From IMG/VR virus record IMGVR_UViG_3300029319_006492: a DNA stretch of 64,000 nucleotides. One strand, written 5' to 3'. Source of the DNA: an uncultured virus (IMG/VR IMGVR_UViG_3300029319_006492) (lineage: Duplodnaviria; Heunggongvirae; Uroviricota; Caudoviricetes). The stretch's first letter is position 1, and each line of letters begins with the position of its first letter. A program made the position numbers and the translations under genes. Positions 7,178-55,675 of this stretch are shown here, piece after piece. Below the pieces are notes generated by a model that saw only the letters and a program-made list of their open reading frames with translations, did not search any database and was not told the DNA's origin.

Positions 7178-8860
7178 ATGAGAAAAAAACGGATACTGTT
7201 TTGCAGTGAAGCAACCTTTTTAAACACGGGGTATGCTACCTATACTAGAGAAATCCTCAACTATCTACATGGAACGGGTAAATACGAAATTGCTGAAATG
7301 GCTTCTTACGGTCAAAGAAACGACCAAAGAGCGGCGGGAATCCCTTGGAAATATTACGGCGTTGTTCCCAATAGTGATTGCGAACCTAAAGCGTCACCAG
7401 AAGAAATGGAAGCATATCAAGCATCAGGGTCTGGTCAGTTCGGAGAGTGGATCTTTGAGCATGTTTGTTTAGACTTCTTGCCAGATGTCGTTTGTGACAT
7501 CAGAGACTTTTGGATGCTCGATTTTGCTGAGAGGTCACCGTTTAGGCCATACTTTAAGTGGGCGATTATGCCAACGGTAGACGCAAGGCCACAAGCCAGA
7601 CAGTGGGTAGCAACATACGCAACAGCAGATGCTTGCTTAACCTACTCAGACTGGGCTGGAGATGTTTTGCAAAATCAGTCAAACGGTAGAATAAACTATC
7701 TCGGTTCGTCACCTCCATCCGCGCATCCGGCTTATAGCCCAGTAGAAGACAAACGCAAACACAAAGAGTCGTTTGGGTTAGATCCAGAATACAAAATTAT
7801 AGGAACAGTTATGCGTAATCAAAGACGTAAGCTGTACCCAGATCTATTTGAAGCATTTAGGAAATTTCTTGATCAAAGCGAAGACAAGAAATACTATCTG
7901 TACTGCCATACTTCCTATCCAGACTTAGGCTGGGATATACCAGAATTAGTACAGGAGTATGGACTTTCTTCGCACGTACTGTTCACTTATATCTGCCCAG
8001 AAACAAAGAACGTGTTTCCTTCACTGTTTAGTGGTGCTGTGGCTCAGTCTCCGTTTACGGGCAAGTGGGGTTCTACATTGTCGAACGTCAAAAATGGAGC
8101 ATCATATGAACAGCTATCCTCTATAATTAACTTGTTTGATTTATACACCCAATACGCCAACTGCGAAGGCTTTGGCCTTCCGTATGTAGAAGCTGCTGCG
8201 TGTGGGGTTCCTGTTTGCGGTACAGATTACTCTGCTATGGAAAGCGAGATGCGCAAGCTAGAGGGTTACCCAATAAAACCGGCAGCACTTTATAAAGAAC
8301 TTGAAACTGGTTGCCTTAGAGCTGTACCCGACAATGATCTAGCGGCTAAATATTTCTTAAACTTCTTTAATTCATCGGAAGAACAGCGGAAAGAAAAGGG
8401 CCAGAGAACCAGAGAATTGTTTCGAGAACATTTCCAGTGGCATAAAAGCGGCAAGAAGTGGGAAGATTATTTTGACAGCATAGAGTTAGAACCCGTAGAA
8501 AAAACTTGGGCGTCTCCACCTAAGATTCATCAACCCGCAGAAAAACCTGATGAAGTAGAGTATACAGTAAATGCAAATAATTTAGCAAAGTGGCTTATCG
8601 TAAACGTGCTGGGAGATCCAAGCAAGCTAGATACTTGGTTTGAAGCAAGAATGACAAGAGATCTTTTGTACAGAAGTGCAACATCCTCTACCGGCGGAAT
8701 GTATTTTAATGAATCATCTGCTGCATTTGATGGTATTAATCACAGAGTTGAATTTAATTTTGACATTGCGTATGAACAAATGAAAAACTTGTGCATCAGA
8801 AGAAACAACTGGGAAGAAAAAAGGATTCAAACTATGCAACAAAGGGGGTTGATACAGTGA
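7178..8860 (+). CDS. GT-B glycosyltransferase (GT4-like) with C-terminal extension
   Basis: TGYATY, RNQRRK, EGFGLPYVEAAACGVPV (EX7E motif). Confidence 0.85.
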   Translation: MRKKRILFCSEATFLNTGYATYTREILNYLHGTGKYEIAEMASYGQRNDQRAAGIPWKYYGVVPNSDCEPKASPEEMEAYQASGSGQFGEWIFEHVCLDFLPDVVCDIRDFWMLDFAERSPFRPYFKWAIMPTVDARPQARQWVATYATADACLTYSDWAGDVLQNQSNGRINYLGSSPPSAHPAYSPVEDKRKHKESFGLDPEYKIIGTVMRNQRRKLYPDLFEAFRKFLDQSEDKKYYLYCHTSYPDLGWDIPELVQEYGLSSHVLFTYICPETKNVFPSLFSGAVAQSPFTGKWGSTLSNVKNGASYEQLSSIINLFDLYTQYANCEGFGLPYVEAAACGVPVCGTDYSAMESEMRKLEGYPIKPAALYKELETGCLRAVPDNDLAAKYFLNFFNSSEEQRKEKGQRTRELFREHFQWHKSGKKWEDYFDSIELEPVEKTWASPPKIHQPAEKPDEVEYTVNANNLAKWLIVNVLGDPSKLDTWFEARMTRDLLYRSATSSTGGMYFNESSAAFDGINHRVEFNFDIAYEQMKNLCIRRNNWEEKRIQTMQQRGLIQ

Positions 8861-14748: not shown

Positions 14749-15424
14749 GCCAGATAAATTTCTAAATGTTCTAGATAAATACATCACTACATGCAGTGTC
14801 TGGAATAAAATTTTCTTTAACATAAATTGTGATAGTCAAGACACGACTATGACGAACCCTTATGTACAAGAGCGTATAAAATATATATTGACAAAGCGCA
14901 TAGAAGTAGACGGCGTAATCAACTATGATAACGACACAGACAAGATAAGTGCAATCAATTCAAATATGGAGGACAAAAGTTTTGACATTGTTATTTGTGC
15001 TTCTGATGATATGGTTCCTAAGATGTTTAGTTGGGATCAGAAGATAGTAGAAGCAATGGAAAAATATTTTCCCAATTTAGATGGTTGCGTACATTTTGAC
15101 GATGGAAATACCAACGGTAAACTTATTACTTTTTCTATACTTGGTAAGGTTTTGTACGATCACTTTGGTTATATTTATCACCCTGATTATAAAAGCTTGT
15201 ACTGTGACGACGAGTTTACACAAGTGGTAAGAGCTATGGGTAAAGAACGATACATAGACGAGGTAATAATTAGCCACGAGCATTACAGTGTAAAAGGCAC
15301 TGACAATTACGGCGACCTAGATATGTCAGCTAGAAAAACCCTGCATTACTCCGGCAGAGATCATATGGTATTCAATAAGAGAAAAGAACTTGGCTTTCCA
15401 AAAGAGAGAATAACAAATGATTGA
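14714..15424 (+). CDS. GT-A glycosyltransferase (GT2-like)
   Basis: FPTLGRP, ASDDM (DxD-like), YHPDYKSLYCDDEF, HEH. Confidence 0.7.
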   Translation: MNLLIQFPTLGRPDKFLNVLDKYITTCSVWNKIFFNINCDSQDTTMTNPYVQERIKYILTKRIEVDGVINYDNDTDKISAINSNMEDKSFDIVICASDDMVPKMFSWDQKIVEAMEKYFPNLDGCVHFDDGNTNGKLITFSILGKVLYDHFGYIYHPDYKSLYCDDEFTQVVRAMGKERYIDEVIISHEHYSVKGTDNYGDLDMSARKTLHYSGRDHMVFNKRKELGFPKERITND

Positions 15425-16043
15425 AGACATATACGTAGACCCTCACGATCAGAGAAACTGGAGCCTATTATTAAATAATAATGTTATCTCTTTAGGAGAT
15501 ACTGTTGTAGACGTGGGTGGTCATCACGGCGTATACACGCATATGTTTTCAAGCCTACTTGGAGCAACTGGAAAAGTCCATGTGTTTGAAATTTTCCCGC
15601 CAAGTTTTAGGTATTTAGAGATGAGATTTGGTCATTGCCCAAACGTGTTTTTCCATAACGCAGCAGTTTCGGACAGAGATGGTTTTGAATCTATTCACGT
15701 AGCAGAAAACAACGAGATGTGTGGGATACTAGAGAAAAACGGTCAAAAGATAGGCCAAATAGAATCAGTTACCCTAGATACATTTTTGGCAGACGAAGAC
15801 AGGGTGTCGTTGATAAAAATAGATGTTGAAGGAGCAGAGCTAAATGTTCTTCGTGGGGCTAAGGAGACTCTCAAGAAAACCGACTCACTTCTGTTAGAAT
15901 GTCACTTTGATGAAGATTGGCCAGAAATTAGAAATATTCTTCTTGAAGAAAATCAGTTTGAGTGCTATAATGTAGATAGGCGTGAGGTGGTTGATGCAAC
16001 AAGCTCAAGGCCGTATCAATGTTTCTGTCGGAGGAAAAAATGA
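15417..16043 (+). CDS. FkbM-family methyltransferase
   Basis: VDVGGHHG, VHVFE, TLD, IKIDVEGAELNVLRGA. Confidence 0.9.
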   Translation: MIEDIYVDPHDQRNWSLLLNNNVISLGDTVVDVGGHHGVYTHMFSSLLGATGKVHVFEIFPPSFRYLEMRFGHCPNVFFHNAAVSDRDGFESIHVAENNEMCGILEKNGQKIGQIESVTLDTFLADEDRVSLIKIDVEGAELNVLRGAKETLKKTDSLLLECHFDEDWPEIRNILLEENQFECYNVDRREVVDATSSRPYQCFCRRKK

Positions 16044-16672
16044 AAGTAATTGCTTTTAGTTTATGGGGCGACAGCCCCAAATACACAATGGGTGCAATTA
16101 AAAACGCAGAAATAGCTAAAGAAATATTTCCAGATTGGACTTGTAGGTATTATCTTGGGTCAGACGTTCCCGAATACATCATAAGAGAATTAGGAAATCT
16201 AGACGCAGAGTGCTGCCCCATGAATGGTAGCGGCTGGAACGGTATGTTTTGGAGGTTCTTTGCAGCAGACTCGCACGATATCGTTTTGTCAAGAGATACG
16301 GACTCCAGATTGGGCAACAGAGAAAAGGCTGCTGTAGATGAGTGGCTAGAAAGTGAAAAGGATTTCCATATAATGAGAGACCACCCATATCACGCCACCG
16401 AAATATTGGGTGGTATGTGGGGAGCTAGAAACGGAATACTGAAAGGTATAAAGCAAATGATACGAGATCATAACAACGGAAATTTTGATGACAAATATCA
16501 AGTTGATCAAAACTTTTTACGAGACGTTGTGTATCCAATAGTAAAAGAAAACTCTATCGTTCATGATGAATTTTTTGCAAAAAAACCATTCCCCAAAAAC
16601 GCCCCAGCAAGAACGAACAGTTATTTTGTAGGACAAGTTTACACCTCTCAGGATGTGGCAGAGTTTTCATAA
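16040..16672 (+). CDS. Putative GT-A-like protein of the RDxDSR / MRDHPYH family
   Basis: IAFSLWG...Y..GAIKN, MFWRF, SRDTDSR, FHIMRDHPYH, ILGGMWG, DQNFL. Start at ATG 16040 after GGAGG. Confidence 0.6.
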   Translation: MKVIAFSLWGDSPKYTMGAIKNAEIAKEIFPDWTCRYYLGSDVPEYIIRELGNLDAECCPMNGSGWNGMFWRFFAADSHDIVLSRDTDSRLGNREKAAVDEWLESEKDFHIMRDHPYHATEILGGMWGARNGILKGIKQMIRDHNNGNFDDKYQVDQNFLRDVVYPIVKENSIVHDEFFAKKPFPKNAPARTNSYFVGQVYTSQDVAEFS

Positions 16673-17379
16673 TGAATAAATATTATATCCATCACCATTT
16701 AGGTCTTGGGGATCACCTAGACTGCAATGGTATGATCAGGTACATACAAAAAAAGGTAGGTAAAAAGGTTTGCGTATTCTCTAAATCAAATTATTACTCT
16801 ATGATTGAGTATATGTACAGAGATACAGAAGACATTGAAGTAATCAAAATAGGCAAAGACGATGAGTATGGCGACGTTCGACGTGTAGTTACCGAGAACA
16901 ACGGCGAGGTTTTAGTCATTGGACACCAGTTCTACCCCGGAAAACAAGCAGAGCTACAGCAAGACAAGAATTGTTGGGAATTTTTCTATGAACAGGTCAA
17001 TATCCCATATGACGTAAGATACTCACACTTTTACGTAGAAAGAGACGAGCAAGAGGAGCAACGAGTATTTAACAAGCTCAACCCAAGCAACGAACCGTTT
17101 ATATTTATACATGAAGATGCGGCTCGTGGGTTTACATTAGATAGAAAACACTTCCTCGATAAAAACTTAAAAATCGTAGAAAACGATGTCACTGAAAATA
17201 TCTTTCACTTTACAAAGATACTGGAGGAGGCGCAGGAAATTCACTGCATGGAAAGCTCTTTCAAGACACTAATTGATTTTTACTGCAAGCAAGATAATAT
17301 ATTTTATCACGATATACGAGAAAGCCAACCTCTGGGGCAGCACAGTTCGCCAAAATGGACAGTAATAAAGTATGATTGA
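16672..17379 (+). CDS. Putative GT-B glycosyltransferase (fucosyltransferase-like)
   Basis: HHLGLGDH, FIFIHED, AQEIHCMESSF. Confidence 0.55.
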   Translation: MNKYYIHHHLGLGDHLDCNGMIRYIQKKVGKKVCVFSKSNYYSMIEYMYRDTEDIEVIKIGKDDEYGDVRRVVTENNGEVLVIGHQFYPGKQAELQQDKNCWEFFYEQVNIPYDVRYSHFYVERDEQEEQRVFNKLNPSNEPFIFIHEDAARGFTLDRKHFLDKNLKIVENDVTENIFHFTKILEEAQEIHCMESSFKTLIDFYCKQDNIFYHDIRESQPLGQHSSPKWTVIKYD

Positions 17380-18223
17380 ACTTATAAACTATAATTGGAT
17401 GCCCACCATAGCGGATCACTGCCTAGACCTTAGCCCTGAGTTTTATGCCTCGGCTGGCGTTAGCAGGTTGCACAGTCATATGGAATTTAAGCCAGAAAAT
17501 GTCATGGAAAACGACATTGTTTTTGTCAAGACTGATTTTGTTCATAACGGAACATTTCAGGCAGATTTTTTACCCCGAATAAGTAACAAGTTCACGCTGG
17601 TTACTGGGATTTCTTCTTACAGCGTCGAGGGAAAACATCAAGAGATATTAGATAACAGCTTGGTAAAACATTGGTTTTGTACCAACCCTCCATCATCCAA
17701 AGAGGTTACTCCGCTACCTATTGGTTTTGAAGAAAAAGAAAGATCCGGTGGCGATCAAAACGTACTAAACTCTGCACTGCTAAACTGTCCTGATTGGTCA
17801 TCTAAATCCGACAAACTTTATTTGCCATACCATGACGTAGGAACAAACCCCAAGAGAGATGCTCAGGTCAGATTCCTATCCTCATTAGAATATGTAGATG
17901 TTGAAACAAGAAGGTTAGGATTTACAGAATACCTGAATAAAATGTCACAATACAAATACATTCTATGTTTATCTGGAGCTGGTGACGATACGCATAGAAA
18001 CTATGAAGCCATGCTTGTAGGATCAACGCCCGTGATGCTAGTCACGCCGCTAAAAAGAGTCTTTGACTTTTACAATTTACCATCAGTCTTTTTGAGGGAA
18101 TGGTATGATTTAGAAAAAATATATAAAGATTTCTTACTAAAAAAGAAATATAATTGGGACGTTACAGATTTTCTAGACGTGAACACTCATAAGGAAAGGA
18201 TATTGTCGTATGCCAAAGGTTGA
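17372..18223 (+). CDS. Exostosin/GT47-like glycosyltransferase
   Basis: Y...MSQYKYILCLSGAGDDTHRNYEAMLVGSTPV matches the exostosin C-terminal motif. Confidence 0.65.
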   Translation: MIELINYNWMPTIADHCLDLSPEFYASAGVSRLHSHMEFKPENVMENDIVFVKTDFVHNGTFQADFLPRISNKFTLVTGISSYSVEGKHQEILDNSLVKHWFCTNPPSSKEVTPLPIGFEEKERSGGDQNVLNSALLNCPDWSSKSDKLYLPYHDVGTNPKRDAQVRFLSSLEYVDVETRRLGFTEYLNKMSQYKYILCLSGAGDDTHRNYEAMLVGSTPVMLVTPLKRVFDFYNLPSVFLREWYDLEKIYKDFLLKKKYNWDVTDFLDVNTHKERILSYAKG

Positions 18224-18599
18224 GGTGTCTGTAGGTGAACTTATAGACAAAATAACTATTTTAGAAATCAAGCAGGAAAGAATCACTGACGAAAAGAAGC
18301 TTTCTCATGTAAATGCTGAATTGGATATATTGAGAGCGACTGTTATCTCTGAGAACATATCTGTGCCGCAAGACTTAGTAAACGAACTAAAGGCTATAAA
18401 CATAGAACTCTGGGACGCCGAGGACGTTATAAGGGCTTGCGAGAAAGACGGTGACTTTACAGAGGCTTTTGTAGATTGTGCAAGATTAGACGCTATACTA
18501 AACGACAAAAGGTTTTTAGCTAAAAACAAAATTAACGAATCCACGCAGTCACTAGTCAAGGAGCAAAAGTCTTATGAGGGACTTTATACCGCAAATTGA
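18210..18599 (+). CDS. DUF6165-like helical protein
   Basis: VSVGELIDKITILEIK...N.ELWD.ED.IR...ND.R..K..IN...EQKSY. Confidence 0.75.
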   Translation: MPKVEVSVGELIDKITILEIKQERITDEKKLSHVNAELDILRATVISENISVPQDLVNELKAINIELWDAEDVIRACEKDGDFTEAFVDCARLDAILNDKRFLAKNKINESTQSLVKEQKSYEGLYTAN

Positions 18600-20825: not shown

Positions 20826-21277
20826 TGTCAAAGGGTGGCTGGAGCATATCTCAGGATTTGATTACAAGCATAGAAGAGTTTGTACCCAAGCATAGCAACA
20901 TACTAGAATTTGGTAGCGGAGAAGGAACAAAATCCCTAGTGGGCTTAGGGTACAACATGTTTTCCGTGGAAGAAAACGCCAAATTCGCAGGTCTTTTCCA
21001 CAACCAATACTGTCACGCAGAAATAAAAGATGGATGGTATGACATGGAAAAAGTTAAGTCGTTTTTGCAAGGTAAATCTTTTCACGCTGTGCTTATAGAT
21101 GGGCCAGCTCATGGAGAAAGATTGAAAATTCTTGATTTAGGGCTTGACTTTAGCGATTTCAAGGTTATAATTGTAGATGATATAGAAAGAAAAGAAGATG
21201 CCGAACTATTCTCTATATTATCTAAAGACAAGCAATTCAAACAAACTTCAACCTACGGGATAATATTTAATGATTAA
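20825..21277 (+). CDS. Small class I SAM-dependent methyltransferase-like protein
   Basis: ILEFGSGEGT, SVEE, LIDGP, IIVDD. Confidence 0.7.
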   Translation: MSKGGWSISQDLITSIEEFVPKHSNILEFGSGEGTKSLVGLGYNMFSVEENAKFAGLFHNQYCHAEIKDGWYDMEKVKSFLQGKSFHAVLIDGPAHGERLKILDLGLDFSDFKVIIVDDIERKEDAELFSILSKDKQFKQTSTYGIIFND

Positions 21278-22927: not shown

Positions 22928-22929
22928 AG

Positions 22930-26223: not shown

Positions 26224-26224
26224 A

Positions 26225-27591: not shown

Positions 27592-27592
27592 T

Positions 27593-29524: not shown

Positions 29525-29527
29525 TTT

Positions 29528-29668: not shown

Positions 29669-29697
29669 ACATTACTCCTTGTAGAAATTGTGAAATT

Positions 29698-34897: not shown

Positions 34898-34908
34898 TTA
34901 TAATTCCT

Positions 34909-45700: not shown

Positions 45701-48700
45701 TGTCGTTACAGTATCAAAGATCTCATCATTGTAAGATATTATTTTTCTAAAGTCGCCACCACCGGAAATTGGTACGTAATCTGTAAATGAATTATCTACT
45801 TGAGAACTAGACTCTATATTATATGCCCATAAAGCAAACTTGCCGACCTTTGTATCTACAGGCTCAATGCTGTGAGTTGGGTAGAATCCATAACCTTGGC
45901 GACACCCTGTTGTTGGTATAGTTTCAGGGTTCACTATTTGAACTGGGAAGCTATTGTCTCCATATGGATACTCAGATCTATTGCCAGCCTGAACGCTCTC
46001 TGTTTGCTGAACAAAATACTCACCAACACTTGGGATTAAGAATGGTTTACTCTTTAGATTTAGTTTAGAACATATGTAATCTACATTCTCTGCTATTAAC
46101 TGAGTTTTATCCGAGTCAATCGCTGAGTATGTGATTACAATCTTCTTATTACCTCTAGACAAGAAATTCATTATCTTGGTAATTTGTAAATCATCCGGTT
46201 TACCCAATGGGTTTGCAATCCACAGTGTAGTAATATTTGTTCCTGTTGCAGGATCGGTATCTGGGAAATCTTTTGTAATATCTGTTTCTACGAAGTTTTC
46301 TTCTACCTCTATGTTATACGCATTTAACCGATCAACTAAAACGTGTGTTTCTTGGGTTTCAGCATCGCTTGAATAAGCATCTTTGAATGACGTTCTGCCA
46401 GTCCAACCGCCAAGCTGTAGGACTTTACCTTTAACTTCGCAGTCTGTAGCAAGCATATTTACATAGAAGAGAACATTTTCATCTTCGTTGTTACTTGGAA
46501 GTGAATCATCGCCTGTGACGCCAAAGCTACGTGAGTTCTCACCAAGTAAGGAAGCCATTATAATTGCATGAGAATTAGTTGCTTCTGGATCTCCATTGTC
46601 ATTTAATTTGTAGTGGGTTTCTTCTAGAGCTAAAATGCTGTCTGGCATCAAGACTCTTCGTCTGTCCTTTGGTTCGCCATAATAAAGTTCACCGCTTCCT
46701 TGCAGGAATCCATCTCTTTCATTCTTAGGATCTGGATCAATAAAGCCTCCTTGCGTAAAGCTATTATACAGACCGGTTAATTCCGAGTTAGAGTCTTCTG
46801 ATATAGAGAATTGCACATGGTCATCTTGAACATCTCTAAACTCAAAACTCTCTGTAAAGGATGGAATAGTTATGAATTTGAAGCAAGGTATTCTTTCGCA
46901 GTCAGTACCGCTAGACGCAGGTATAACTCTGACCGTATCCGGAAGATGTTCGGCAGCAGTTAATAGTGGAACAATGTCTTGATTCGGCCTATTTATCATA
47001 GGCTTAGGACTTTCTGGATAATCGTCACAAGCTTGAGCGGGATTTGTGTTTGCAAAGTGGAATGGCCAGTTTGTCTTGTATTCTATTTTTAGAACTTTAT
47101 CGCCAACCGTTTTAATGCACTCAGACTGCCACTGCGCCCTAAGATCACCAAGGTGTTTTATGGGCAAATTGCAAACGTTTGGATTGAGTTTGTCACAAGG
47201 GGAGAACTGGATAAAGTTTTCTAGGTCATCTTTCTTGACGTTTATTCTAATGTCACCCACACCTTTAGCAAACATGTTAGGTGCAGAGATTAATGTAGAA
47301 TGTCCGTACTCCGGTCTGAACGCTTTTGTTACATTCCATTTGTCATTAAATACATCTCCGGCTGACACGCACTCTGGCAAAGATTCGTATTTGGTGTCTG
47401 CTGGCTGAATTATCATCCTAGAGCCAAGCTTGTCTAATAGTCTATTTACAATTATATTAGAGTCATTATATACACCATTTTCTTCATAAACTGGATCGTT
47501 GCCAACAATGACTAAAGTTCTGTCGCCAAGAGCAAGCCAGTCTTTTATATTTTGCACAATTTCATCACTGTCAGAGTCAAGCTCTGGAGTAATGATAAAT
47601 GCGAGACCAGCACTTCTAGGTATTTCAATCTCTTCAAAATCCATTCTTCTAAATGGCCTTTTGTCAGGCTCAAAGTATAAGCCCATTTGATCGTAAAAGC
47701 CATCATCGACCAAAGATGGATGTAGTGTTCTGTCTAGATTTCCAAACCTTGTAAATTCAACCACTCCGCTATGTGGGAATATCTTTTTAGATTCAAAGAT
47801 CCTAACTGCCCCAGCGTTAGTGTAGGAAGCCCATGTGTTCTCGCTCTTGTACCATACGTTGTGGTCTTCAAATATGGTGGTAGAATCTGTCGGCGCACCA
47901 AACGCAACTGTGTCTCCAGCGTCACTCACACTTGTGCTATAGCCAAGTCTACTAGTTCCGCAGAACTCATTGACTATAAATGACCAAGTACCAGTTGCTT
48001 TGACGTTACGAGCGCTATAATTAAAGATGGGTTTGTATAGCTCTATGCCGTATTTTGTTCTGAGGTCAAACTTCTGGTCGTGGCTCATTTCATGATAACT
48101 AACTCTCTGGGCAATGTTAGCACCAGAGACATCAAATATCATATTGTATTTCTCGACGCCAGAGCTTATAAAGTTCAAGTAGTTGAATACATTGTCATAC
48201 ACTCTGGTTGTTTCTGAATCGTCTCTTTCGTAAATTTCGCAAGGAGTATTAGTATATGGTGATCCTATAGAGATGATCTCTGAGTTTTTACTGATTGATA
48301 CGTCGTGTCCGTACCTATCGTTGTGCTGAATTCCGTAGCCAAATCTAATCTCGGCATCATCAAAGTCATCCCTAAAGTTAAACGAAGCTCTGTCTGAGAA
48401 GGATTTTATTTCTTGTACGCAGTTAAATACACCGCTTTCTTTCTCAAAGATGTAAACTCTACCGCCAGAAGAAGGTGGTATTTGGAATTCGTATGCACCC
48501 TCTTGCGCCCACTCTTGACCGACGCCGCTAGTGATATACCTAAGAGCGTCTTGTCTTATTAAATTACCTGAGTCGAGTGTTTCATTTAATACCTTGATTG
48601 AGGATTGATCCCAGCTTTCACCTTTTTCTAGTATTTTATTAAAGTAGCCAGATTCTTTATTGTAAGGGCCAGACACTTCTGGGTCAATCACACCACTAGC

Positions 48701-51700
48701 ATAAGCATACTCTTGGTAGAAATCTGTAAATTCATCTACTACATTTTTGTTTGTCTGTGTGTTGTAGAACGCAGCTAATCCAGCACTATTACTCTTTTCT
48801 CTAAAGATACCCATGATTGGTGGAATACCACTGTGTGGGCCGAATGCATATGGGAAAGCACCTAAGAATGAGTTCTTGACACCACTAAGCATCAAATCGT
48901 ATGTAGCTTGATAACCATCTGCGTCAGTTACAACACTATCATCCATTCTTGGTAGGTAAACGTGGTGGAAGAAATCTGTATCATGGTTGACTGGTGGCTG
49001 TTCTTGTTCCGCCCTCATTATCTGACATACTATAACTTTAATGTCAAGCTCTGGCTGGAATTCGTGATTTGTGCCGCCGTACCAAGGTGCGGAGAAATAC
49101 TTGTAGAGAATATCATATTTTCTAGCCACGGAAGCTATTTGCTCTATCTTTTTCTTATTGTAATTAAATGAATCTGTAAATATCATCATCGCTACTGGCA
49201 ATCCAGACGATGTTATATCAACAAATTCTCTTGTCCACTTAGCAAACGGCGCTCCAGCTACAACAACCTCTCTGTCGCCACTTGAGCATATGTCTAAGGA
49301 GTAACCTAGCTGTCTGCCTTCTTGACCTATGTTCCACTTTTTACCAGATATAGACCATTGGTCATACCGGATCAAATTTTGCACAGTCGCTTCAACGTAG
49401 TCTTTTCTGTATCCAGACGGAAGCATTAACTTGTCTTCCATAGTCCAAGCTGCTTTTCTTCCGGCTACATCTTCTCCTCTTCTATAAAGGAAGATTGCTC
49501 CAGCGTCATCAATTTGAGACTCTGCCCCGGTTAAGAAGTCTCTAAATGGAACTTGTAACTTAGGGGAGCTTATAGCCATTAAGTCGGTTGCAGTGGCGAC
49601 TGCTCTACCGTACTGGTCTGCTGTATTTCTACCTGAAGGAGGAGTTACGTTTCGTATGTCTTGTGGGTAAGAATCTCCAGCGAGCGGGTAATCGCCTATC
49701 AGTTTGACACCTGAGTAAACTATACTCTGGTCGCAATCAGAGGCGCAGCAACCGCTGGTTCCACCTGCGTCAGCAAAATGTTCTGGTCCACAATGTCCAT
49801 ACTCCCATTCTTCAAACTCTCTAGGTACAGGAATAGATTCTGTATTTCCGGTAACTATATTGAGGGTAGCTTCAAAAGTTGATCCCGGCCTCAACCCAGT
49901 ATATTTTCTAATGCCATAGTAGTTTCCGGAGTAGCCAACCGTGTCGCCAAAGCCGGAAGTGGTTGGATTATTATATGTGGCAGTTGCTCTGAATATACCG
50001 CCTTCTTCGCAAGTCCTCGGTCTCCATACTGTATCGTGGGTGATAACAGCGGGTTCTATCGCTTTGTCCGGACTGTTACCGGTACAAGAGCCAAACCCAA
50101 ATAAGTCAACACCTCTAATTTCGTTTGAAACGGGAACTGCTGCGTACTTGTTATCTTTTTGCTCTATTGAGGTTCCAAAATTATTATTGAACCACATTAG
50201 ATAATCTGACCCCTCACCGCCATAATTAGCCATGAATAGGTTCATTCCAACTAAAGTTCCACCACCCTGCGATGAAACAACACTAGCAGCCTCAGTCTTG
50301 ACATTCAATATATGTAACGGCATAGAGACTCGCACGTCTTGTGGAGTATCTATAAACAAGGTCATTTGTGAAGATGGGAATCTATCTTCTGGTGTGCCAA
50401 AGCCTTGGGTGTATAGGTTTAAGTCGTTAGTTCCAGAACCTTCTATTCCGCCAACCCTTCTGCCTTGAGTGTACAAGTTCAACGGAAGTGGTCTTAATCC
50501 TAAGATACCACTTTCATTGTATCCAGAAACAGCGTATGTAAATAGATCTAAGTATCCACCAGAAGGACGATTCGCCAAATCTAGGTTTTGTATGAACAGA
50601 GGTACTTGGACATTATCAAAACCAAGCACTTTTGGCATAACAAGATTGAACATGCCGCTAGCATCAGAGACAGGTCTCAGTTCGCCAGATATTGCCAAAG
50701 ACATGGACGAATCAGCAACACCTACAGAAATAGTTGTTAGATTTAAGCTTTGTTCAGATTGTAAATTGCCACTAACGTTTAGATTTAAACCAGACCTTGG
50801 AACTAAAGAGCCTTCAGTAAACAGTATGTCTGAGTTAAAGAAGAACTCTCCACCGCCACTAGAGTAAATATTAAATACAGGATTAAGTACGTTTCCACCA
50901 CTAGCAAATATATTCATATTGCCGTTTTTGCTAGTAAACGTGGTATTTACATGATCCATTCTTACATGGGCGCTATGTATATTGACAGTAGACTTGAATG
51001 GTGAGCCAGAGGGGTACACAAGGTCGTACTGCAAGAACATGTCGTCAACATCTTGCGAGAAGTAGCGTTCACCAAAATCTTTGTATCTAGGCTCATCTGG
51101 GAATAATGACCATTGCTCTGACGTGTCGGTAAGTTCATCATAAGAAAACTTACTGCTAAATTGTATTATGTCGCTGGAGGCTGGGATATAGTGAACGTCC
51201 CTGCTTATCAAGCCATGATTCGGTTCGCCAAGATTGCTCCAGTTAGGCTCTTGTCTCTTTGTATAAAGACTAACAATAAGTTTAGGCCCAATGGTATTCT
51301 CAAAAGAATGCCTATGCTCAGTGCAGACAACATTTCTTGTTGGTATACAATCACCCCAACTAATAATATTGTCTGTTTCATGCTCAATAACAGTGTCTAC
51401 AACTAGCGCTTCTTCTGTGAACTTGTAACCTGCGGGAAGACTCTTTGTGATTCTTCTATGTACAGAGTGGAAGTTATCGGCAGTATCAGAGAGATGGAAT
51501 CTTAAGAAGTCATTTTCTATTTGTGTATGGTACGCAACCCCGCTGTCTACAGTTGTAGGCATAGCAAAGTCTGCACGTTGTATGTAACCAGAACCATGAT
51601 GGTTGATATGGAATCCGATTAAATCTCTATTTGTTCTTTTGCCTACTGCGCTACCTAACGACGAGAACGAAGGAGTAAATTCTCTATACTGGAAATCTCC

Positions 51701-54700
51701 GAGTGACCAGTCTACGGTAGTATCTTCGTTGACGTAATCCCATAGTTGATATGTATCTCTAGAGAAGTTTTCTTCTGGTTCAAAGAACTTAGCCCTTATA
51801 CCCTTAAGAAATTCCTCTGCTGTAACCTGCTTGTGCGTTCTGTCTGGATTGACTTCCACAATGTTTGTACCCGAACCATATGGGTAGATGACACTGCCTC
51901 CGCTATTTACTCCGGACTCCCAAGTAGAAATTCCAAAATCAGTAACAAACATATTAAATCCAACACCAGAGCCTTTAGCCCATCCGATGGTTATATTTGG
52001 ATCGTCTATACCCTTGCTTGGGATATGTATTTTTGTGAATGCAGAGGAGGTGGCTCTTAGGTTTGTATGAGCGGGTCCAAGGTCGTTGTCAGTGTATAGC
52101 TTAAGTTTTTGACTTTGGTGATCATTATACGTTAATAGTATAGATAAGGGGTATTGGTAGGCGTGGTACTTTAATGTATCAGAAATTTCTATTACATTCT
52201 CGCTGCCATCCTTAGCGTAAGCTGTTAGGTATCCATTTTTGTATCCAAGTGCAAAGTCTAGGTTATTTGCAAGCTCCCACTTGGAAAGAAGAACGCCTGA
52301 ATTGAATAGGTTGTGATTGATACCGCTGACGTTTTGGTCTGGAGAAAATCTTAAGAATACAGAGAAACCGCCAGAAGTATTTATTATACCTGCGTCGGCA
52401 GTCATGTCAAGATATTTACCCCCAGCCTGACCGGAGACTCTAACGGCGCTATCAAATGCGTCAGCGATCTTACCGTACAGGTCATCGTTTTGGAAATTTA
52501 ACGAACCATTAGAATACGATGTCCAGTCTATGGTTTCGTAAGGAGTTGTGTATCCCGGCAGGTGTTTTTCAAATAATGTTCCTGAGCTAAACCTCCAGCC
52601 GAGATTATTGACAACATCAAACTGGTAATTTCCATTTGTTAGTAATAAATCACATTCATTATGGTCGCCAGAACCCATTAGGTTCAAGCCCTTGTTTCTA
52701 TTCAAGAAGTGGGTTGGACCGCTAGATGCATCCGTATCGTTGAAATCATAATAGCCCAGCTTGAATGGGAAAGGTACATGTGGGTTTTCAAAACCAAAAC
52801 TAAACATATCGACATCAAACGGACCATTGACGGTTCCTGTTTGACCACGCCATCTACGTGAATAGTTTGTTTTTATACTGGATGGTGTAGCATAGGCGTG
52901 TGGTATATTCTCTATGGTTGAGATGGGGCCATATCCAGAACCTGCGTTTAAAATATCGTCATTAGACGATAGTCTACCCGATGGAAATATCTTAGCTTCA
53001 GACCTCCGCTTTCTTATCTTACCTATATCTTCTCCACCCTCAACAGAAAGCATTAGGCCATCCTGTGGAGCTATTCTAACAAGGAGATGTATGTCAGCTA
53101 TACTAGCGCCGCTAGGTATTGGGTAAATGTCTAGATATAAGTTTTCAAACAAAGAACTTACATCGTAATTTTTACTGTACCCTAGTTTTACTCTATCGTC
53201 ATATATAACGAGTGGTACTTCATAATCTTGGAATTCTGTAGAAGATACCACTGGATAAGTTGACAGTGAATAGTGGTCTCCGCCAAGATTGCCGCTGGCT
53301 TCGTAATGTTCATCTTTTTCTGATAAACTTTCTCCACCCAACGCAAAATCATTGCTGTTGTGGTGGAACCCAGATACATATGGGTGAACACCTTCACTTG
53401 CAAAAATAATATTATTAACCTGTACGCCAGATGAATTCTGTAGGAATCCACTTTGTGCGGGGGTGACGTTTAGAAGCTTGTCGTCACTGTAGCCAACAAC
53501 ATCAAACGAAAAGTGTCTAGAAGTTTCAGCTTTTTTAGCTCTAACTTTTAGGGTAACAGAGTCTACAACAAAGTACCCTGCTTTACCGTCAATGTCGTGT
53601 TTGTTTTCTGTGTTGAACGCTCCGCTAGGAGAATACCAAGAATTCGCTGTAGACTGATCAAAGCCAAAATTGAAGGCTCCCCTTGTTACCTCTTTGAGTG
53701 TGTCTGAGCTAGGGGAAAACTTAAGTGTTAATTTTCCGGAATCTAAGTGTGGCCCAGTTGTGTGCAGTGTTGCAAAAGTGTAATCAGAGCCATCCGTAAC
53801 ATTGTATACTATATGCTCTGCTCCACATTCGCTCTCGTTTGTAGTAGAGGTTAGATCATTTGGATACCAAACGCTACTATTAGAAGGCCATATTCCAGTG
53901 TCAAACTTTGCATGAGGCATGAAGGTTGGCACGATCTTTTTCTCTAGCCTTCTACCTTTCTGCGGAACCTCCATGTAAAACGGAAGATAGTTTTCGTATC
54001 TTGGACCCCAGCCCTCACCAAATGCGTATAGGCCGCTGTTGCATATCTCAATCGCAGATATTCTAATGTTCTTAGCAGGATTTATGAGGCTCTGATCTTG
54101 GGTAGACATCGGTGAGCCATCTAGAGCTAAGTAGTCAGTACCACTAGCATACGTTTCATGTAAAAGACTTCTGTCTTCAAAGCCTTCGTCGAACCCATCT
54201 GTGTAGGCTTCGTCTAAAGCATATATCTCAACATTAAATACTATTGTGTAATCCGACTTTTCGTGCATAGACGGATACTCATCTTCCCACTCATAAAACT
54301 CTGTTGTAAAGTTTCTCTTGGGGGCAGAAGAGAATGTTGTGTAATTTACCGTTGGTCTAACATCTTGGTCAGCGTCACCTCTAAAAGTAATGTCGTTGTA
54401 GTGGACGACGGTGTTCCCTGATGGATCAAGTAATTTAATATTACTAAATGTATATTGTGGTGGTGTATTAGATTCATAGTTGCGAAGCGGAGCTGATGCC
54501 CTCATTCTAAATCTAGTATGCTCAGGCTTAACTAAGACATTTGTAACTTTGGCTCTATACTGGAATTCTCCATCTGTTCTAAACGTATTGGGCTGTATAA
54601 AATCTGAGTCATCAGAAATTAATGCGCTATTAGTATTGAACGCCTCGTCGTAATCGCCAACAAATACCCCTTCATCAATGAATTGATAAAGATTGCCTGA

Positions 54701-55675
54701 CTCTTTGTATGGTCCAACAAATTTGCCTTTGTGTAAATCTACTTCAACGTCTTGTATGGGGAAGAGTTTTTGAACACACTCGTAATCCCCGAAGTCACCA
54801 ACGTACTTGTCTATGTTTGTATTTTTTAATTCCGTATCGCCTAGAAGCTGCTGTCTTGCGTTGTGCGTTTGGTGCAATCCTCCCGATGGCATGATAATGT
54901 CGCCGCGACCAGTAAGCGTCGAAGCAGCAAAGAGTTTGGCAGATACAGCAGACTTGTTTATAAAGGCAGAAGCTTGCAGTGTTGCAGAGGCGGCTCTTTT
55001 AGGAACAATGCAGGGGTTTGTAAACTTATCTAATTCTGATATAAAGTGGATAGTGAATAAATTGCTACCCACAACACCGTTGGGAAACTGTGTGTGTAAA
55101 TCGCCGCCAGTAGCCCAAGGGTCTGAATGAATTGGGGCTGAGTTGTCGTTGTGACCCCTTACAAAAACAAGCTCTGCTTCGGCAATAAGACAACCGTCAT
55201 ACGACTCTGCCAATATGGGGCTTGTCCAAAATTCTGGATTAAACTCTCCATTACACTTGTCAGGCCCACCTTGGAATCCAGTTCTAACAACTTTATAATA
55301 ATAGATATTTGACCCGTAGGTTAATACCAGATAGTTGTTGGTTTTAAGATTTTGTGCGATATGATCGTATTCGTCACCGCCAAAGCCACTAGCAAGAAAC
55401 TTAGTTACGTGCGTCTTTTGACCGTCCACATCGCCTTCGTAACTTGGGTTTTCCGACCAAGAAGAAGACGGAATAAATGATGACGGATTTGGTTTGACCG
55501 GGGAGTCTGTGTCAAAGTGCGTACACTCTAAATGCCCAGCACCCAATAGTCCACCTTTTATCATTGCTGGACTGCAAGATAATTTAGCAGATATAGATGC
55601 GCTAGTAGAGGCGGTAGCTTCCGCCTTTTTTACGCAAAAACATTCTAATGCAACTAAGTGTTTTTTAGGTTCCAT
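42782..55675 (-). CDS. Giant 4297-aa virion/adhesin-like protein: LamG-like domain, 7 FG-GAP blades, two GIFT/GATase-like domains, short beta repeats
   Basis: Uninterrupted ORF after a GAGGA RBS. LamG-like FSVFLRF...LLSKW...LLTYN...KLYTD. FG-GAP-like DQYG/QLGYS/DRYG/RLGYS/DLFGFSV/DQFGYSV/DHFGWSV, most followed by GAP/GSP/GTP and GA.Y.F. Confidence 0.75.
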   Translation of the reverse strand: MEPKKHLVALECFCVKKAEATASTSASISAKLSCSPAMIKGGLLGAGHLECTHFDTDSPVKPNPSSFIPSSSWSENPSYEGDVDGQKTHVTKFLASGFGGDEYDHIAQNLKTNNYLVLTYGSNIYYYKVVRTGFQGGPDKCNGEFNPEFWTSPILAESYDGCLIAEAELVFVRGHNDNSAPIHSDPWATGGDLHTQFPNGVVGSNLFTIHFISELDKFTNPCIVPKRAASATLQASAFINKSAVSAKLFAASTLTGRGDIIMPSGGLHQTHNARQQLLGDTELKNTNIDKYVGDFGDYECVQKLFPIQDVEVDLHKGKFVGPYKESGNLYQFIDEGVFVGDYDEAFNTNSALISDDSDFIQPNTFRTDGEFQYRAKVTNVLVKPEHTRFRMRASAPLRNYESNTPPQYTFSNIKLLDPSGNTVVHYNDITFRGDADQDVRPTVNYTTFSSAPKRNFTTEFYEWEDEYPSMHEKSDYTIVFNVEIYALDEAYTDGFDEGFEDRSLLHETYASGTDYLALDGSPMSTQDQSLINPAKNIRISAIEICNSGLYAFGEGWGPRYENYLPFYMEVPQKGRRLEKKIVPTFMPHAKFDTGIWPSNSSVWYPNDLTSTTNESECGAEHIVYNVTDGSDYTFATLHTTGPHLDSGKLTLKFSPSSDTLKEVTRGAFNFGFDQSTANSWYSPSGAFNTENKHDIDGKAGYFVVDSVTLKVRAKKAETSRHFSFDVVGYSDDKLLNVTPAQSGFLQNSSGVQVNNIIFASEGVHPYVSGFHHNSNDFALGGESLSEKDEHYEASGNLGGDHYSLSTYPVVSSTEFQDYEVPLVIYDDRVKLGYSKNYDVSSLFENLYLDIYPIPSGASIADIHLLVRIAPQDGLMLSVEGGEDIGKIRKRRSEAKIFPSGRLSSNDDILNAGSGYGPISTIENIPHAYATPSSIKTNYSRRWRGQTGTVNGPFDVDMFSFGFENPHVPFPFKLGYYDFNDTDASSGPTHFLNRNKGLNLMGSGDHNECDLLLTNGNYQFDVVNNLGWRFSSGTLFEKHLPGYTTPYETIDWTSYSNGSLNFQNDDLYGKIADAFDSAVRVSGQAGGKYLDMTADAGIINTSGGFSVFLRFSPDQNVSGINHNLFNSGVLLSKWELANNLDFALGYKNGYLTAYAKDGSENVIEISDTLKYHAYQYPLSILLTYNDHQSQKLKLYTDNDLGPAHTNLRATSSAFTKIHIPSKGIDDPNITIGWAKGSGVGFNMFVTDFGISTWESGVNSGGSVIYPYGSGTNIVEVNPDRTHKQVTAEEFLKGIRAKFFEPEENFSRDTYQLWDYVNEDTTVDWSLGDFQYREFTPSFSSLGSAVGKRTNRDLIGFHINHHGSGYIQRADFAMPTTVDSGVAYHTQIENDFLRFHLSDTADNFHSVHRRITKSLPAGYKFTEEALVVDTVIEHETDNIISWGDCIPTRNVVCTEHRHSFENTIGPKLIVSLYTKRQEPNWSNLGEPNHGLISRDVHYIPASSDIIQFSSKFSYDELTDTSEQWSLFPDEPRYKDFGERYFSQDVDDMFLQYDLVYPSGSPFKSTVNIHSAHVRMDHVNTTFTSKNGNMNIFASGGNVLNPVFNIYSSGGGEFFFNSDILFTEGSLVPRSGLNLNVSGNLQSEQSLNLTTISVGVADSSMSLAISGELRPVSDASGMFNLVMPKVLGFDNVQVPLFIQNLDLANRPSGGYLDLFTYAVSGYNESGILGLRPLPLNLYTQGRRVGGIEGSGTNDLNLYTQGFGTPEDRFPSSQMTLFIDTPQDVRVSMPLHILNVKTEAASVVSSQGGGTLVGMNLFMANYGGEGSDYLMWFNNNFGTSIEQKDNKYAAVPVSNEIRGVDLFGFGSCTGNSPDKAIEPAVITHDTVWRPRTCEEGGIFRATATYNNPTTSGFGDTVGYSGNYYGIRKYTGLRPGSTFEATLNIVTGNTESIPVPREFEEWEYGHCGPEHFADAGGTSGCCASDCDQSIVYSGVKLIGDYPLAGDSYPQDIRNVTPPSGRNTADQYGRAVATATDLMAISSPKLQVPFRDFLTGAESQIDDAGAIFLYRRGEDVAGRKAAWTMEDKLMLPSGYRKDYVEATVQNLIRYDQWSISGKKWNIGQEGRQLGYSLDICSSGDREVVVAGAPFAKWTREFVDITSSGLPVAMMIFTDSFNYNKKKIEQIASVARKYDILYKYFSAPWYGGTNHEFQPELDIKVIVCQIMRAEQEQPPVNHDTDFFHHVYLPRMDDSVVTDADGYQATYDLMLSGVKNSFLGAFPYAFGPHSGIPPIMGIFREKSNSAGLAAFYNTQTNKNVVDEFTDFYQEYAYASGVIDPEVSGPYNKESGYFNKILEKGESWDQSSIKVLNETLDSGNLIRQDALRYITSGVGQEWAQEGAYEFQIPPSSGGRVYIFEKESGVFNCVQEIKSFSDRASFNFRDDFDDAEIRFGYGIQHNDRYGHDVSISKNSEIISIGSPYTNTPCEIYERDDSETTRVYDNVFNYLNFISSGVEKYNMIFDVSGANIAQRVSYHEMSHDQKFDLRTKYGIELYKPIFNYSARNVKATGTWSFIVNEFCGTSRLGYSTSVSDAGDTVAFGAPTDSTTIFEDHNVWYKSENTWASYTNAGAVRIFESKKIFPHSGVVEFTRFGNLDRTLHPSLVDDGFYDQMGLYFEPDKRPFRRMDFEEIEIPRSAGLAFIITPELDSDSDEIVQNIKDWLALGDRTLVIVGNDPVYEENGVYNDSNIIVNRLLDKLGSRMIIQPADTKYESLPECVSAGDVFNDKWNVTKAFRPEYGHSTLISAPNMFAKGVGDIRINVKKDDLENFIQFSPCDKLNPNVCNLPIKHLGDLRAQWQSECIKTVGDKVLKIEYKTNWPFHFANTNPAQACDDYPESPKPMINRPNQDIVPLLTAAEHLPDTVRVIPASSGTDCERIPCFKFITIPSFTESFEFRDVQDDHVQFSISEDSNSELTGLYNSFTQGGFIDPDPKNERDGFLQGSGELYYGEPKDRRRVLMPDSILALEETHYKLNDNGDPEATNSHAIIMASLLGENSRSFGVTGDDSLPSNNEDENVLFYVNMLATDCEVKGKVLQLGGWTGRTSFKDAYSSDAETQETHVLVDRLNAYNIEVEENFVETDITKDFPDTDPATGTNITTLWIANPLGKPDDLQITKIMNFLSRGNKKIVITYSAIDSDKTQLIAENVDYICSKLNLKSKPFLIPSVGEYFVQQTESVQAGNRSEYPYGDNSFPVQIVNPETIPTTGCRQGYGFYPTHSIEPVDTKVGKFALWAYNIESSSQVDNSFTDYVPISGGGDFRKIISYNDEIFDTVTTVPSYYSIQEQGKIIFPVVKGSGYRMYINWVSETKNDHHELWGTVTPAKFDPNQGDEELGAGDMGGFVVLNNTILRDPDQEVIDFIALDEYIELQIEAQHSKIDPAVEEKNERTLPPFTPRVLSVSGCPLPIDKIVTKKERRRRVPCDPPFTEICTDWYNPEQEFVIPGEFRPIKHESDPYCNPYAPPCPPPSENEDCCPPRNDVEIEDGPVIAAEEFETFSAGVNGNARSRIVVISDSTLLQGQCPQYRADALGENQQFIRSLYPSSPTRQGGDGLDFGGLDLIDTDLQGRQFQFVQKLRAPERGSAAKYYAASGITNTVSPLYYYGGVSDKSKFVDNEDTYDPALVVRQKNPRTPQEIKDKIKEFGETVVPAFGAFPRFSGDFLNIGTNYLLPGEEEPRNWIADARIFGGMPDLMKITDGKDYLDFEYFTSGCPGDLFGFSVDLTEDKLIVGTPFNGFVTDTAISGVSGIVQWHEIQNGPDFSGIELCENGGAGAAFYFERTGSGTNAIAEFLPWEWKQKIKPSSVNVGMIEPSIGVLSSLGDHNLDANFIETHGGRPDQFGYSVAIDADMIAVGAPNHNFESLHDHSVYVSGEFIRKEFGRAFEIAHHVVHDLGSSGVRIDGFANNSGTMVLNNGAVFTFRNHIYDWTTRSKNWIYAEKLYAQGHKDRTAANKFIAALVSGCENDHFGWSVGLNRSERGDSDYTLVAGAPFHDFATSGNHPQSASDATPVNGLDSAGASYTFDAMLREQSPSIPNSGGWIDVEVFGDKPENNNIKTRVYQPTTGQPQRIVVSGELVVNQFGDIFLEVSGYDPSQKGFIAHRPYVESVVGNMLDGTSVADFLKLSIFGQPNSIDNAWPSLVGNEEFNTEFNFDMDSLSHRPSGMSLFIPGPSAVYVYNNGVGHQLLNNTLFTESGGPVTPLTLNIQGITGFGSGTMNLVASASGTANSGTLNLNINSGPPKNNLDLNVRGR

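Follow-up and report, generated by a model that had tools for sequence, protein, structure and literature searches.

The 64,000-nucleotide stretch of DNA analysed here (hereafter, the window) comes from an uncultured tailed phage, IMG/VR record IMGVR_UViG_3300029319_006492, and consists of two convergent blocks of genes. The plus-strand block (279-29459) opens with the gene for a PAP2 phosphatase; a DNA polymerase III alpha subunit in two parts and a single-stranded DNA-binding protein come next, followed by an island of sugar genes. The minus-strand block (29755-63794) is composed of tail genes, in the order 2266-amino-acid (aa) tape measure protein, 4297-aa giant protein, and proteins of 632, 240, 1742, 1444 and 248 aa. 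An initial annotation had proposed that the island builds a glycan on serine-glycine (Ser-Gly, SG) dipeptides of the outer virion proteins. This report concerns those dipeptides, the island and the relation between them.

Ser-Gly dipeptides in the virion proteins

Dipeptides were counted on translated open reading frames (ORFs), and the expected number of SG was calculated from each protein's own composition. The giant protein was found to contain 86 SG where 31.9 are expected (observed/expected, O/E, 2.70), and neither GS (27, O/E 0.85) nor TG (19, O/E 0.83) is in excess. Across 5000 composition-preserving shuffles, SG averaged 31.8 (standard deviation 5.2) and reached 51 at most. Among all 400 dipeptides SG is the top outlier (z 9.6), with PS as the runner-up (3.06). 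The initial annotation had counted ~85 SG against ~27 GS by hand; these counts were confirmed, the SG clusters that it quoted are present (sites 2327/2335/2342 and 3791/3794), and the excess stays under the composition-corrected comparison with GS and TG that it had called for. The excess is regional, being strong at residues 401-1400 (O/E 2.90), 1401-2640 (3.08) and 3601-4297 (3.35) and absent at residues 1-400 (1.10) and 2641-3600 (1.19). Local composition does not explain it.

Several other sources of the signal were considered. At the SG sites of the giant protein each of the six codons for Ser and of the four for Gly is in use, with no dominant hexamer, so the signal lies in the protein and a DNA word or codon artefact is excluded. 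A single repeated domain was likewise ruled out for this protein, as the sites are spread and irregularly spaced. NG, DG and PG are all depleted in it (O/E 0.68, 0.63 and 0.30). Replacement of deamidation-prone NG and DG by SG explains little, the NG deficit being ~16-30 sites against an SG excess of 59-172; the virion proteins of phage T4 also show NG at 0.81 O/E. Short repeat-like strings of the form SG..(L/M)NL at residues 1590-1750 and 4200-4297 were observed to be conserved across the family.

The other tail proteins of the window differ in their SG content. The 248-aa protein has 8 SG (3.6 expected) and the 240-aa protein 5 (2.8 expected), the numbers originally reported. The 1742-aa and 1444-aa proteins each have 9 (8.8 and 9.0 expected), which bears out the caveat that these two are not clearly enriched; the three SG noted within the first 45 residues of the former are indeed there, at residues 13, 23 and 41. 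The two proteins chosen earlier as controls are unenriched, with 18 SG in the tape measure protein (17.8 expected) and 4 in DnaE-N (2.5 expected). Pooled, the seven virion proteins of the window have 137 SG against 78 expected (1.76), and 35 plus-strand proteins have 31 against 36 (0.86). The 1444-aa and 1742-aa proteins are likely receptor binders; they share 25% and 39% identity, respectively, with their counterparts in the relative G002 (see below), and family searches (Pfam, PHROG) gave no match for either.

Marine metagenomes contain 219 or more homologues of the giant protein, ~3,800-5,400 aa in length. The best 1675 candidates were scored and 120 homologues listed, and SG is enriched in every one of these 120 (mean O/E 2.61, range 1.97-3.37; means for GS and TG 1.03 and 0.84). 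To follow individual sites we aligned 40 homologues, taken as every third of the 120, and compared the cluster representative, which has 87 SG, one more than the window's translation, with the 39 others. Fifty-seven of the 87 reference sites are SG in at least half of the 39 homologues, and 43 in at least three quarters. The remaining 30 sites are about what chance would give (~32), which indicates that the SG excess consists of old, conserved sites.

Conservation at these sites centers on the serine. Within the family, Ser conservation is 0.64 in SG and 0.38 for other serines. Where the Gly of an SG is kept, Ser was retained 2066 times and replaced by Thr only 57 times. Among residues preceding a kept Gly, Ser is the best retained (0.87), ahead of Tyr (0.76), Asn (0.40) and Asp (0.36), and its retention exceeds even the mean conservation of Trp (0.68). 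A similar picture was seen for the family of the 248-aa protein, whose 12 members have 6-9 SG each (pooled, 84 against 34.3 expected), with five of the eight SG sites retained in at least 10 of 11 homologues. Switching between the two Ser codon families was considered as a sign of special selection; its frequency at conserved SG serines (3 of 13) did not differ from that at conserved serines elsewhere (4 of 10). In a sister clade, the giant proteins are 33-40% identical in their C-terminal region and have slightly weaker SG enrichment (O/E 1.96-2.24 in four genomes). In one of these genomes, G013 (L155:4022-15141), the giant gene is split into adjacent ORFs of 1530 aa (O/E 2.23) and 2176 aa (2.24), and the split marks a natural domain boundary of the giant protein.

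The best view of the whole virion comes from G002, a complete relative of 172,984 bp with terminal repeats, for which 183 ORFs were obtained with a simple ORF caller. Its giant protein has 90 SG (33.1 expected). In the rest of its structural module (33 ORFs, 17,715 aa) there are 273 SG against 158.1 expected (O/E 1.73), again the top dipeptide outlier (z 9.1), and the other 149 ORFs have 128 against 111.9 (1.14). The strongest cases are proteins of 1503 aa (56 SG, 23.4 expected), 329 aa (8, 2.3), 536 aa (18, 6.5) and 531 aa (15, 6.4), and the SG-richest proteins are fibre-like or spike-like and encoded between the head and tail genes. No enrichment was found in the cement protein, a scaffold-like coiled-coil protein, the terminase, the distal tail block (1.15) or the presumed major capsid protein; the last of these is an ORF of 335 aa without a family match, and its assignment is by position only. 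The counterpart of the window's 240-aa protein is 184 aa long with 5 SG (1.1 expected), although the two are alignable over 47 residues only. The proposal that SG is enriched in the outer proteins stands in part: the trait is Ser-specific and restricted to the lineage's virion proteins, but the likely receptor binders and the presumed capsid lack it.

Control phages put the size of the effect in perspective. Among annotated coding sequences, the SG O/E of virion proteins was 1.22 in T5, 1.15 in T4, 1.32 in Reynauld, 1.24 in PMBT24 and 1.37 in the marine cyanomyophage S-RIM32, and it was 1.02 in the unannotated phi3T locus. The 3,496-aa fibre of S-RIM32 reaches 1.59, with TG raised alike (1.47). 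A mild excess of [S/T]-Gly is thus normal for fibres, and a 2-3-fold excess of Ser-Gly only is not.

Sequence context and structural setting of the sites

The SG sites of the giant-protein family have a characteristic context. Hydrophobic residues are enriched at position -3 and at +1 to +3 after the Gly, Pro, Ala and Val are enriched at -1, and charged residues (Asp, Glu, Lys, Arg) are depleted around the sites, with Lys at 0.09 times expectation at -1. Other serines and other glycines of the family do not have this pattern. The G002 fibre proteins share the context and the non-virion SG sites of G002 do not. Expressed as a motif, [A/P/V]-S-G-[V/I/C] occurs 43 times in the virion proteins of the lineage (~6.6 expected), twice in its non-virion proteins (3.5 expected) and 4 times in the five control phages (6.5 expected).

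In the 1503-aa fibre of G002, many SG sites lie in repeats of two kinds, '..IG..AG..A-SG-..NI.IG' and '(V/F)SGVSG(V/I)xV', so a repeated domain is part of the source of SG in that protein. The second type also appears in the window's giant protein, as AISGVSGIVQW. The giant protein matches PF14312 (FG-GAP_2) at residues 3882-3917 (61 bits, cut-off 23), and blade-like consensus strings ('DxFGxSV...GAP') appear in the alignments of its family. In two FG-GAP-type blades, SG stands at an equal distance before the 'D-x-F-G-x-S-V' strand. FG-GAP blades were seen at two places in the protein, and the stretch between these places has no SG excess.

AlphaFold models were made for residues 1540-2540 (19 rows) and 3598-4297 (33 rows) of the giant protein and are poor, with mean predicted local distance difference test (pLDDT) scores of 44 and 49.5. 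Eight of the 52 modelled SG sites fall in blocks with pLDDT of 70 or above; in these poor models, seven of them are located at a terminus of a helix or strand or adjacent to one, and the eighth is in the middle of a helix. A Foldseek search of the PDB with the first model gave nothing at E ≤ 0.001, and sequence searches of solved structures gave no match for the giant protein or the 1503-aa fibre.

We favor, at about an even chance of being correct, the reading that SG is a lineage-specific structural cap or turn motif and that the glycan system is separate from it. Strands and helices of the beta-rich appendage proteins would end or start at a small hydroxyl residue with Gly after it, this pair would also make the tight turns of fibre repeats, and purifying selection would keep SG at fixed positions. 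This structural role is what we infer from several features of the sites. The whole SG excess sits at conserved positions, sites lie in the fibre repeats of G002, one type of which recurs in the giant protein, and the FG-GAP-type blades place SG at the same distance before a strand. The hydrophobic flanks and the depletion of charge are as expected at strand edges in packed beta structure, and the near absence of Thr in place of Ser fits a sterically tight position. The excess also depends on the domain (approximately threefold or none), seven of the eight sites in confidently modelled blocks are at element ends, and the likely receptor binders and presumed capsid have no excess.

The glycan island and its possible targets

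The sugar genes occupy 24 ORFs on the plus strand (7178 to 27142; Table 1). The initial annotation had an island of 25 genes, which is about right, although the last four ORFs of the block look regulatory. The glycosyltransferases encoded are three of family GT4, a 236-aa protein matching a PHROG glycosyltransferase, a GT32-like protein, a GT2 and a Glyco_trans_1_2 protein, and an RXYLT1-like ORF matches RXYLT1_C at 24 bits, below its cut-off. Sugar enzymes include LegB/GalE-like and GDP-fucose-synthase-like short-chain dehydrogenases/reductases (SDRs), LegC/PseC-like and RfbH-like aminotransferases and a GlmU-N-like nucleotidyltransferase, and there are also FkbM and class-I methyltransferases and a radical SAM protein. 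These matches support the earlier suggestion to the extent that the phage has an extensive pathway of its own for deoxy, amino and methylated sugars. No transmembrane-like segment (19 residues with mean Kyte-Doolittle score of at least 1.6) was found in the island proteins by a crude test in which the PAP2 protein also scored none; an island without membrane-spanning segments fits assembly in the cytoplasm.

Table 1. Features of the window discussed in the text, with coordinates and strand.
Feature	Position	Strand	Remarks
560-aa GT4	7178..8860	+	First island gene; Pfam and PHROG glycosyltransferase matches
Conserved left arm: two GT4, unknowns, nucleotidyltransferase, LegB/GalE-like SDR, 236-aa glycosyltransferase	8791..15424	+	G002 orthologues, 27-57% identity
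Variable middle: FkbM methyltransferase, RXYLT1-like, DUF6165, two DegT aminotransferases, GT32-like, GT2, radical SAM, methyltransferase, Glyco_trans_1_2	15417..26223	+	Profile matches
GDP-L-fucose-synthase-like SDR, conserved right end	26135..27142	+	NF047922, 296 bits, below 500-bit cut-off
Four small genes (157, 254, 255, 115 aa)	27118..29459	+	Weak sigma-70 region-4-like and zinc-ribbon matches; phrog_559
Convergent junction of island/replication unit (+) and structural unit (-)	29490..29725		Terminator-like hairpins, both strands
248-aa protein	29755..30501	-	Last gene of structural module; SG-rich family
1444-aa and 1742-aa distal tail proteins	30563..40137	-	No SG excess; most divergent structural genes
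240-aa protein	40151..40873	-	Weak SG enrichment
632-aa tail protein	40883..42781	-	2 SG, 4.1 expected; not enriched
Giant 4297-aa protein	42782..55675	-	Directly after tape measure gene; 86 SG; FG-GAP-type blades near C-terminus
Tape measure protein, 2266 aa	55687..62487	-	PhageMin_Tail match; internal control

Sugar genes were found at the same place in all 11 relatives scanned, a scan that took in 148 of 175 ORFs, with two near-duplicate loci and five further ORFs left out. The SDR at the right end of the island is present in all 11 and is 64% identical to that of G002. The interior differs between relatives, which encode GT11, GT-D-like, FdtA, aldolase, TylF and nucleotidyltransferase proteins there; in the window, 13 of the 14 ORFs of the middle (15417-26223) have no G002 match at E ≤ 1e-5. 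In five further relatives, epimerase/dehydratase genes were found in all and the glycosyltransferase family searched for in four. The SG trait and the island occur together in 16 of 16 relatives examined, and also in the sister clade. A relative lacking the island was sought among the lineage members and the sister clade and none was found, so co-occurrence cannot test a link between SG and the island. G002 also encodes a GDP-mannose 4,6-dehydratase, Glf, a GT8 and a Stf0-type sulfotransferase. Upstream of its polymerase lie genes for an RTX-repeat Gly-rich protein, the 607-aa GT8, the Stf0 sulfotransferase and a UDP-galactopyranose mutase (L015:15084-19546, L016:1389-2492), and the sugars of that phage may accordingly include sulfated or furanose forms. 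Inside the sugar island of one relative (L005:14447-14812) there is a gene for a nitrogen-regulatory P-II protein (115 bits), which, with a cyanophage-like structural gene described below, suggests marine picocyanobacteria as hosts.

The four small genes that follow the island are present in all 13 related loci, with 31-76% identity to G002. One has a sigma-70 region-4-like N-terminus together with a PHROG 'HNH endonuclease' match, and another is a zinc ribbon, 76% identical to its G002 counterpart. They are probably regulators and not sugar enzymes, and may act on late genes.

The first gene of the island stands out for its conservation. The 560-aa GT4 was found in 7 of 9 relatives' records, including all three complete ones, at 74-83% identity, the two misses being records 55-67% complete. 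Between the window and G002 its identity is 73.8%, the third highest of 28 orthologue pairs; the polymerase halves (70-71%), the giant protein (44%) and the tail proteins (25-57%) are all below it. It has 224 relatives in viral contigs, of which the best 80 are all near full length and 66-84% identical. Its similarity to known enzymes is that of a generic GT4 (BshA, a chlorovirus glycosyltransferase and streptococcal GtfA, all weak), and matches to solved structures are likewise generic. A predicted complex of this enzyme with the 248-aa protein scored 0.00 in a run made without controls, and counts neither for nor against an interaction.

The island may have no connection with virion proteins. 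It could glycosylate the phage DNA, as in hypermodification of the 5-hydroxymethylcytosine type, or remodel glycans of the host envelope, and we regard this as rather unlikely. The island directly follows the replication genes on the same strand, in a unit that converges on the structural genes, and the accessible text of a study of phage DNA hypermodification describes glycosyltransferase clusters near replication or structural genes whose enzymes are related to those for lipopolysaccharide and teichoic acid (bioRxiv 10.1101/2023.12.21.572611). G002 encodes a deoxynucleoside monophosphate kinase, a dCMP deaminase and a ThyA-family enzyme, and a PAP2 phosphatase is present in the window at 279-944. 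However, the ThyA-like protein passes the curated cut-off for thymidylate synthase (234 against 108 bits), and the ~8 glycosyltransferases and the methylated amino- and deoxy-sugar pathways far exceed the mono- to trisaccharides that the same text gives for DNA. DNA hypermodification needs a cytosine methyltransferase with a 5mYOX/TET enzyme, or a hydroxymethylase, and none was found here: no DNA methylase or dioxygenase was present among 123 G002 ORFs searched with Pfam (the window itself being part of its own genome), and Tet_JBP was found in none of four relatives in a weak search that matched nowhere in control genomes either. Against remodelling of the envelope, the island encodes no initiating phosphoglycosyl transferase, flippase or polymerase.

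Under the structural reading that we favor, the island would be a separate, lineage-wide cytoplasmic sugar system with a conserved core, formed by the 560-aa GT4, two further GT4 and a GDP-6-deoxyhexose branch, to which a variable set of decorating enzymes would be added. By analogy with the systems discussed below, its glycan would most plausibly decorate the virion fibres.

Structural motif or glycan acceptor

Several observations weigh against a purely structural role for SG. The size and specificity of the excess are unusual for a plain turn motif, with control phages at 1.15-1.37 and TG here at 0.83. Asn and Asp normally interchange with Ser in turns, yet Ser is retained before a kept Gly in 87% of cases, against 40% for Asn-Gly and 36% for Asp-Gly. 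The four-residue context shared by proteins without detectable homology looks more like a recognised linear motif, and in the confident parts of the models SG is found in several different structural settings and not in one. Both models are, moreover, poor (mean pLDDT 44 and 49.5), and the structural evidence is thin. That the 560-aa GT4 is more conserved than the DNA polymerase implies that it catalyses an essential reaction and that the acceptor is conserved too; a structural motif leaves this acceptor unnamed, and it does not explain why the trait is restricted to this lineage.

Such points are better accommodated if the SG serines are acceptors of a phage-encoded, cytoplasmic, Ser-specific O-glycosylation with the context [A/P/V]-S-G-[V/I/C], which we nevertheless consider unlikely. 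The 560-aa GT4 would add the first sugar, the left arm of the island would build a core, and the variable middle would diversify the outer glycan. A fixed acceptor with a diversifying glycan predicts a conserved initiating enzyme and variable distal enzymes, and the 560-aa GT4 is held at 66-84% identity while that of structural proteins falls to 25-57%. The motif is restricted to the lineage's virion proteins and is common to proteins without detectable homology, Ser is the best-retained residue before Gly, and Thr is excluded. The island is present in 16 of 16 relatives and appears to be all-soluble, with no flippase, polymerase or oligosaccharyltransferase-like membrane protein. The precedent of TibC suggests that positional conservation in turns is compatible with glycosylation (PMC4358343, accessible text), and the fibril glycan clusters of giant viruses offer a virological parallel (PMC10117803, accessible text).

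The proposed step from the island to the serines did not gain support, as no result links the two directly and, with no lineage member lacking the island, co-occurrence is uninformative. In the confident model parts, one conserved SG is in the middle of a helix and others are inside strands. The most exposed candidates (the 1444-aa and 1742-aa proteins) and the presumed capsid of G002 are unenriched, and mycobacteriophage glycans sit on the capsid and tail tube (as cited in the accessible text of PMC12619734). The 560-aa GT4 has generic GT4 similarity only, and the excess is made up entirely of ancient conserved sites with no sign of newly gained ones. In its most novel form, the acceptor proposal would describe a self-contained cytoplasmic O-glycosylation system in a widespread, uncultured marine siphophage lineage, with a Ser-only motif ([A/P/V]-Ser-Gly-[V/I/C]), some 60 modified serines in the giant protein and dozens more in fibres, and a swappable cassette that diversifies the outer sugars; that such a system exists is, in our estimate, doubtful.

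It is very improbable that the SG serines are phosphorylated or acylated, form a cross-link, take part in self-processing, bind ions or have some other modification or chemistry of this kind. The exceptional Ser-specific conservation would suit such a role, and a short protein-kinase-like ORF, below the Pfam cut-off, lies in the island of one relative. No matching enzyme is conserved in the lineage, however, and a literature search gave no such known Ser-Gly chemistry.

Comparison with known systems bears on both the structural and the acceptor proposals. Schellman or alpha-L C-caps, ST-turns and the G1 bulge are capping and tight-turn motifs with a left-handed glycine. The SG sites resemble them in the position-specific conservation of a small polar residue and Gly and, as far as the few sites in confident blocks of the poor models indicate, in a location at element ends; they differ in that Asn, Asp, Thr or Gly can normally stand for Ser in such motifs, which do not produce a proteome-level, 2-3-fold excess restricted to one module. 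Xylosylation of animal proteoglycans, to which the initial annotation had likened the SG sites, is Ser-specific at a Ser-Gly acceptor, with sites near acidic residues. This analogy fits poorly beyond the dipeptide itself, as Asp, Glu, Lys and Arg are depleted around SG, the flanks are hydrophobic, and the sole xylosyltransferase-like match (RXYLT1_C) is below its cut-off.

Another resemblance is to TibC and AAH, cytoplasmic enzymes that hyperglycosylate many loop serines of TibA and AIDA-I. According to the accessible text of PMC4358343, TibC heptosylates Ser, not Thr, in TibA, at loops of its beta-helix; one of the mapped sites, ..QNSGGAV.., is a Ser-Gly with hydrophobic strand residues on its flanks. 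Ser-specific sites, hydrophobic strand-like flanks and a large beta-rich protein are common to both cases, with the modification being a prediction in ours. These bacterial autotransporter heptosyltransferases are GT9-like, however, and the island glycosyltransferases match GT4, GT2 and GT32-type families; among the island proteins there was no Glyco_transf_9 or heptosyltransferase match, and no ADP-heptose pathway was identified.

To our knowledge, phage-encoded glycosylation of virions is documented mainly in mycobacteriophages, and we know of no acceptor rule for it. There, glycosyltransferases that the phage encodes act on its virion proteins in the cytoplasm, with glycans at the C-termini of capsid and tail-tube subunits (Freeman et al. 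2023, as cited in PMC12619734, accessible text). The lineage described here is similar in encoding its own glycosyltransferases. It differs in that its presumed capsid (in G002) has no SG enrichment, in that dozens of internal SG in fibres and in the giant tail protein are the candidate sites, in the much larger size of its island, and in that modification of the virion is a prediction. Fibrils of the Megavirinae are a second parallel, in which virus-encoded, clade-specific clusters of 6-33 genes make rare amino, deoxy, methylated or sulfated sugars and are linked to a layer of fibres on the virion (PMC10117803, accessible text). The ~24 genes with a variable middle, in relatives with a large battery of fibre genes, liken our lineage to these viruses by gene content, although they infect eukaryotes and the accessible part of that source describes no acceptor motif for them. 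Our literature search found no account of this lineage, nor any of a Ser-Gly motif in the glycosylation of phages. The 'moraphages' of PMC12619734 were considered and ruled out as members of the lineage, as they are myoviruses without a tape measure gene.

The lineage is abundant in ocean metagenomes (at least 219 giant-protein homologues, and 224 GT4 relatives in viral contigs). Three features come together in it: a variable sugar island of 13-25 kb, a glycosyltransferase of extreme conservation, and a Ser-Gly motif confined to the appendages of the virion. Should these be connected, the sugar coat of a virion could be predicted from sequence, and the 248-aa protein, with its five near-invariant sites, would be a simple test substrate. 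If the SG serines are indeed acceptors, phage virion glycosylation would have its first defined acceptor motif, and the appendage would be the most heavily glycosylated one known in a phage. If the three are not connected, the motif would be an unusually clean, lineage-specific structural 'grammar' in giant beta-rich proteins, which would help in modelling them.

Additional features of the window and its relatives were noted during the analysis. No match to the window DNA or the giant protein was found among 50,697 phage records, and no cultured relative was found for the window DNA, the giant protein, the 1503-aa fibre of G002 or the 560-aa GT4. The PAP2-superfamily phosphatase (49 bits) is the window's first gene, and recycling of a lipid carrier is one conceivable role for it. 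The halves of DNA polymerase III alpha are at 2278-3900 (PHP and NTPase) and 5235-6794 (finger and HhH); genes for an RNase T-like exonuclease (3897-4571) and endonuclease VII (4534-4971) separate the two, and the split arrangement recurs in G002. At the junction of the two blocks (29490-29725) there are 3 terminator-like sites, against 0.7 expected in shuffles. The tape measure protein of G002 (75773-84355) is 2860 aa long and, like that of the window at 2266 aa, very long; by the length rule for such proteins, which we assume applies here, these imply tails of several hundred nanometers. Between the terminase and ClpP-type head protease genes of G002 there is a lipid desaturase-domain gene (139 bits; 123255-123803, L021:3255-3803). 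Finally, a 537-aa structural protein of G002 (97915-99528; L019:17915-19528) has homologues in 156 phage records, 148 of them from Synechococcus, Prochlorococcus or other cyanophages, and these matches are a hint that the host is a picocyanobacterium or that genes have been exchanged with cyanophages.

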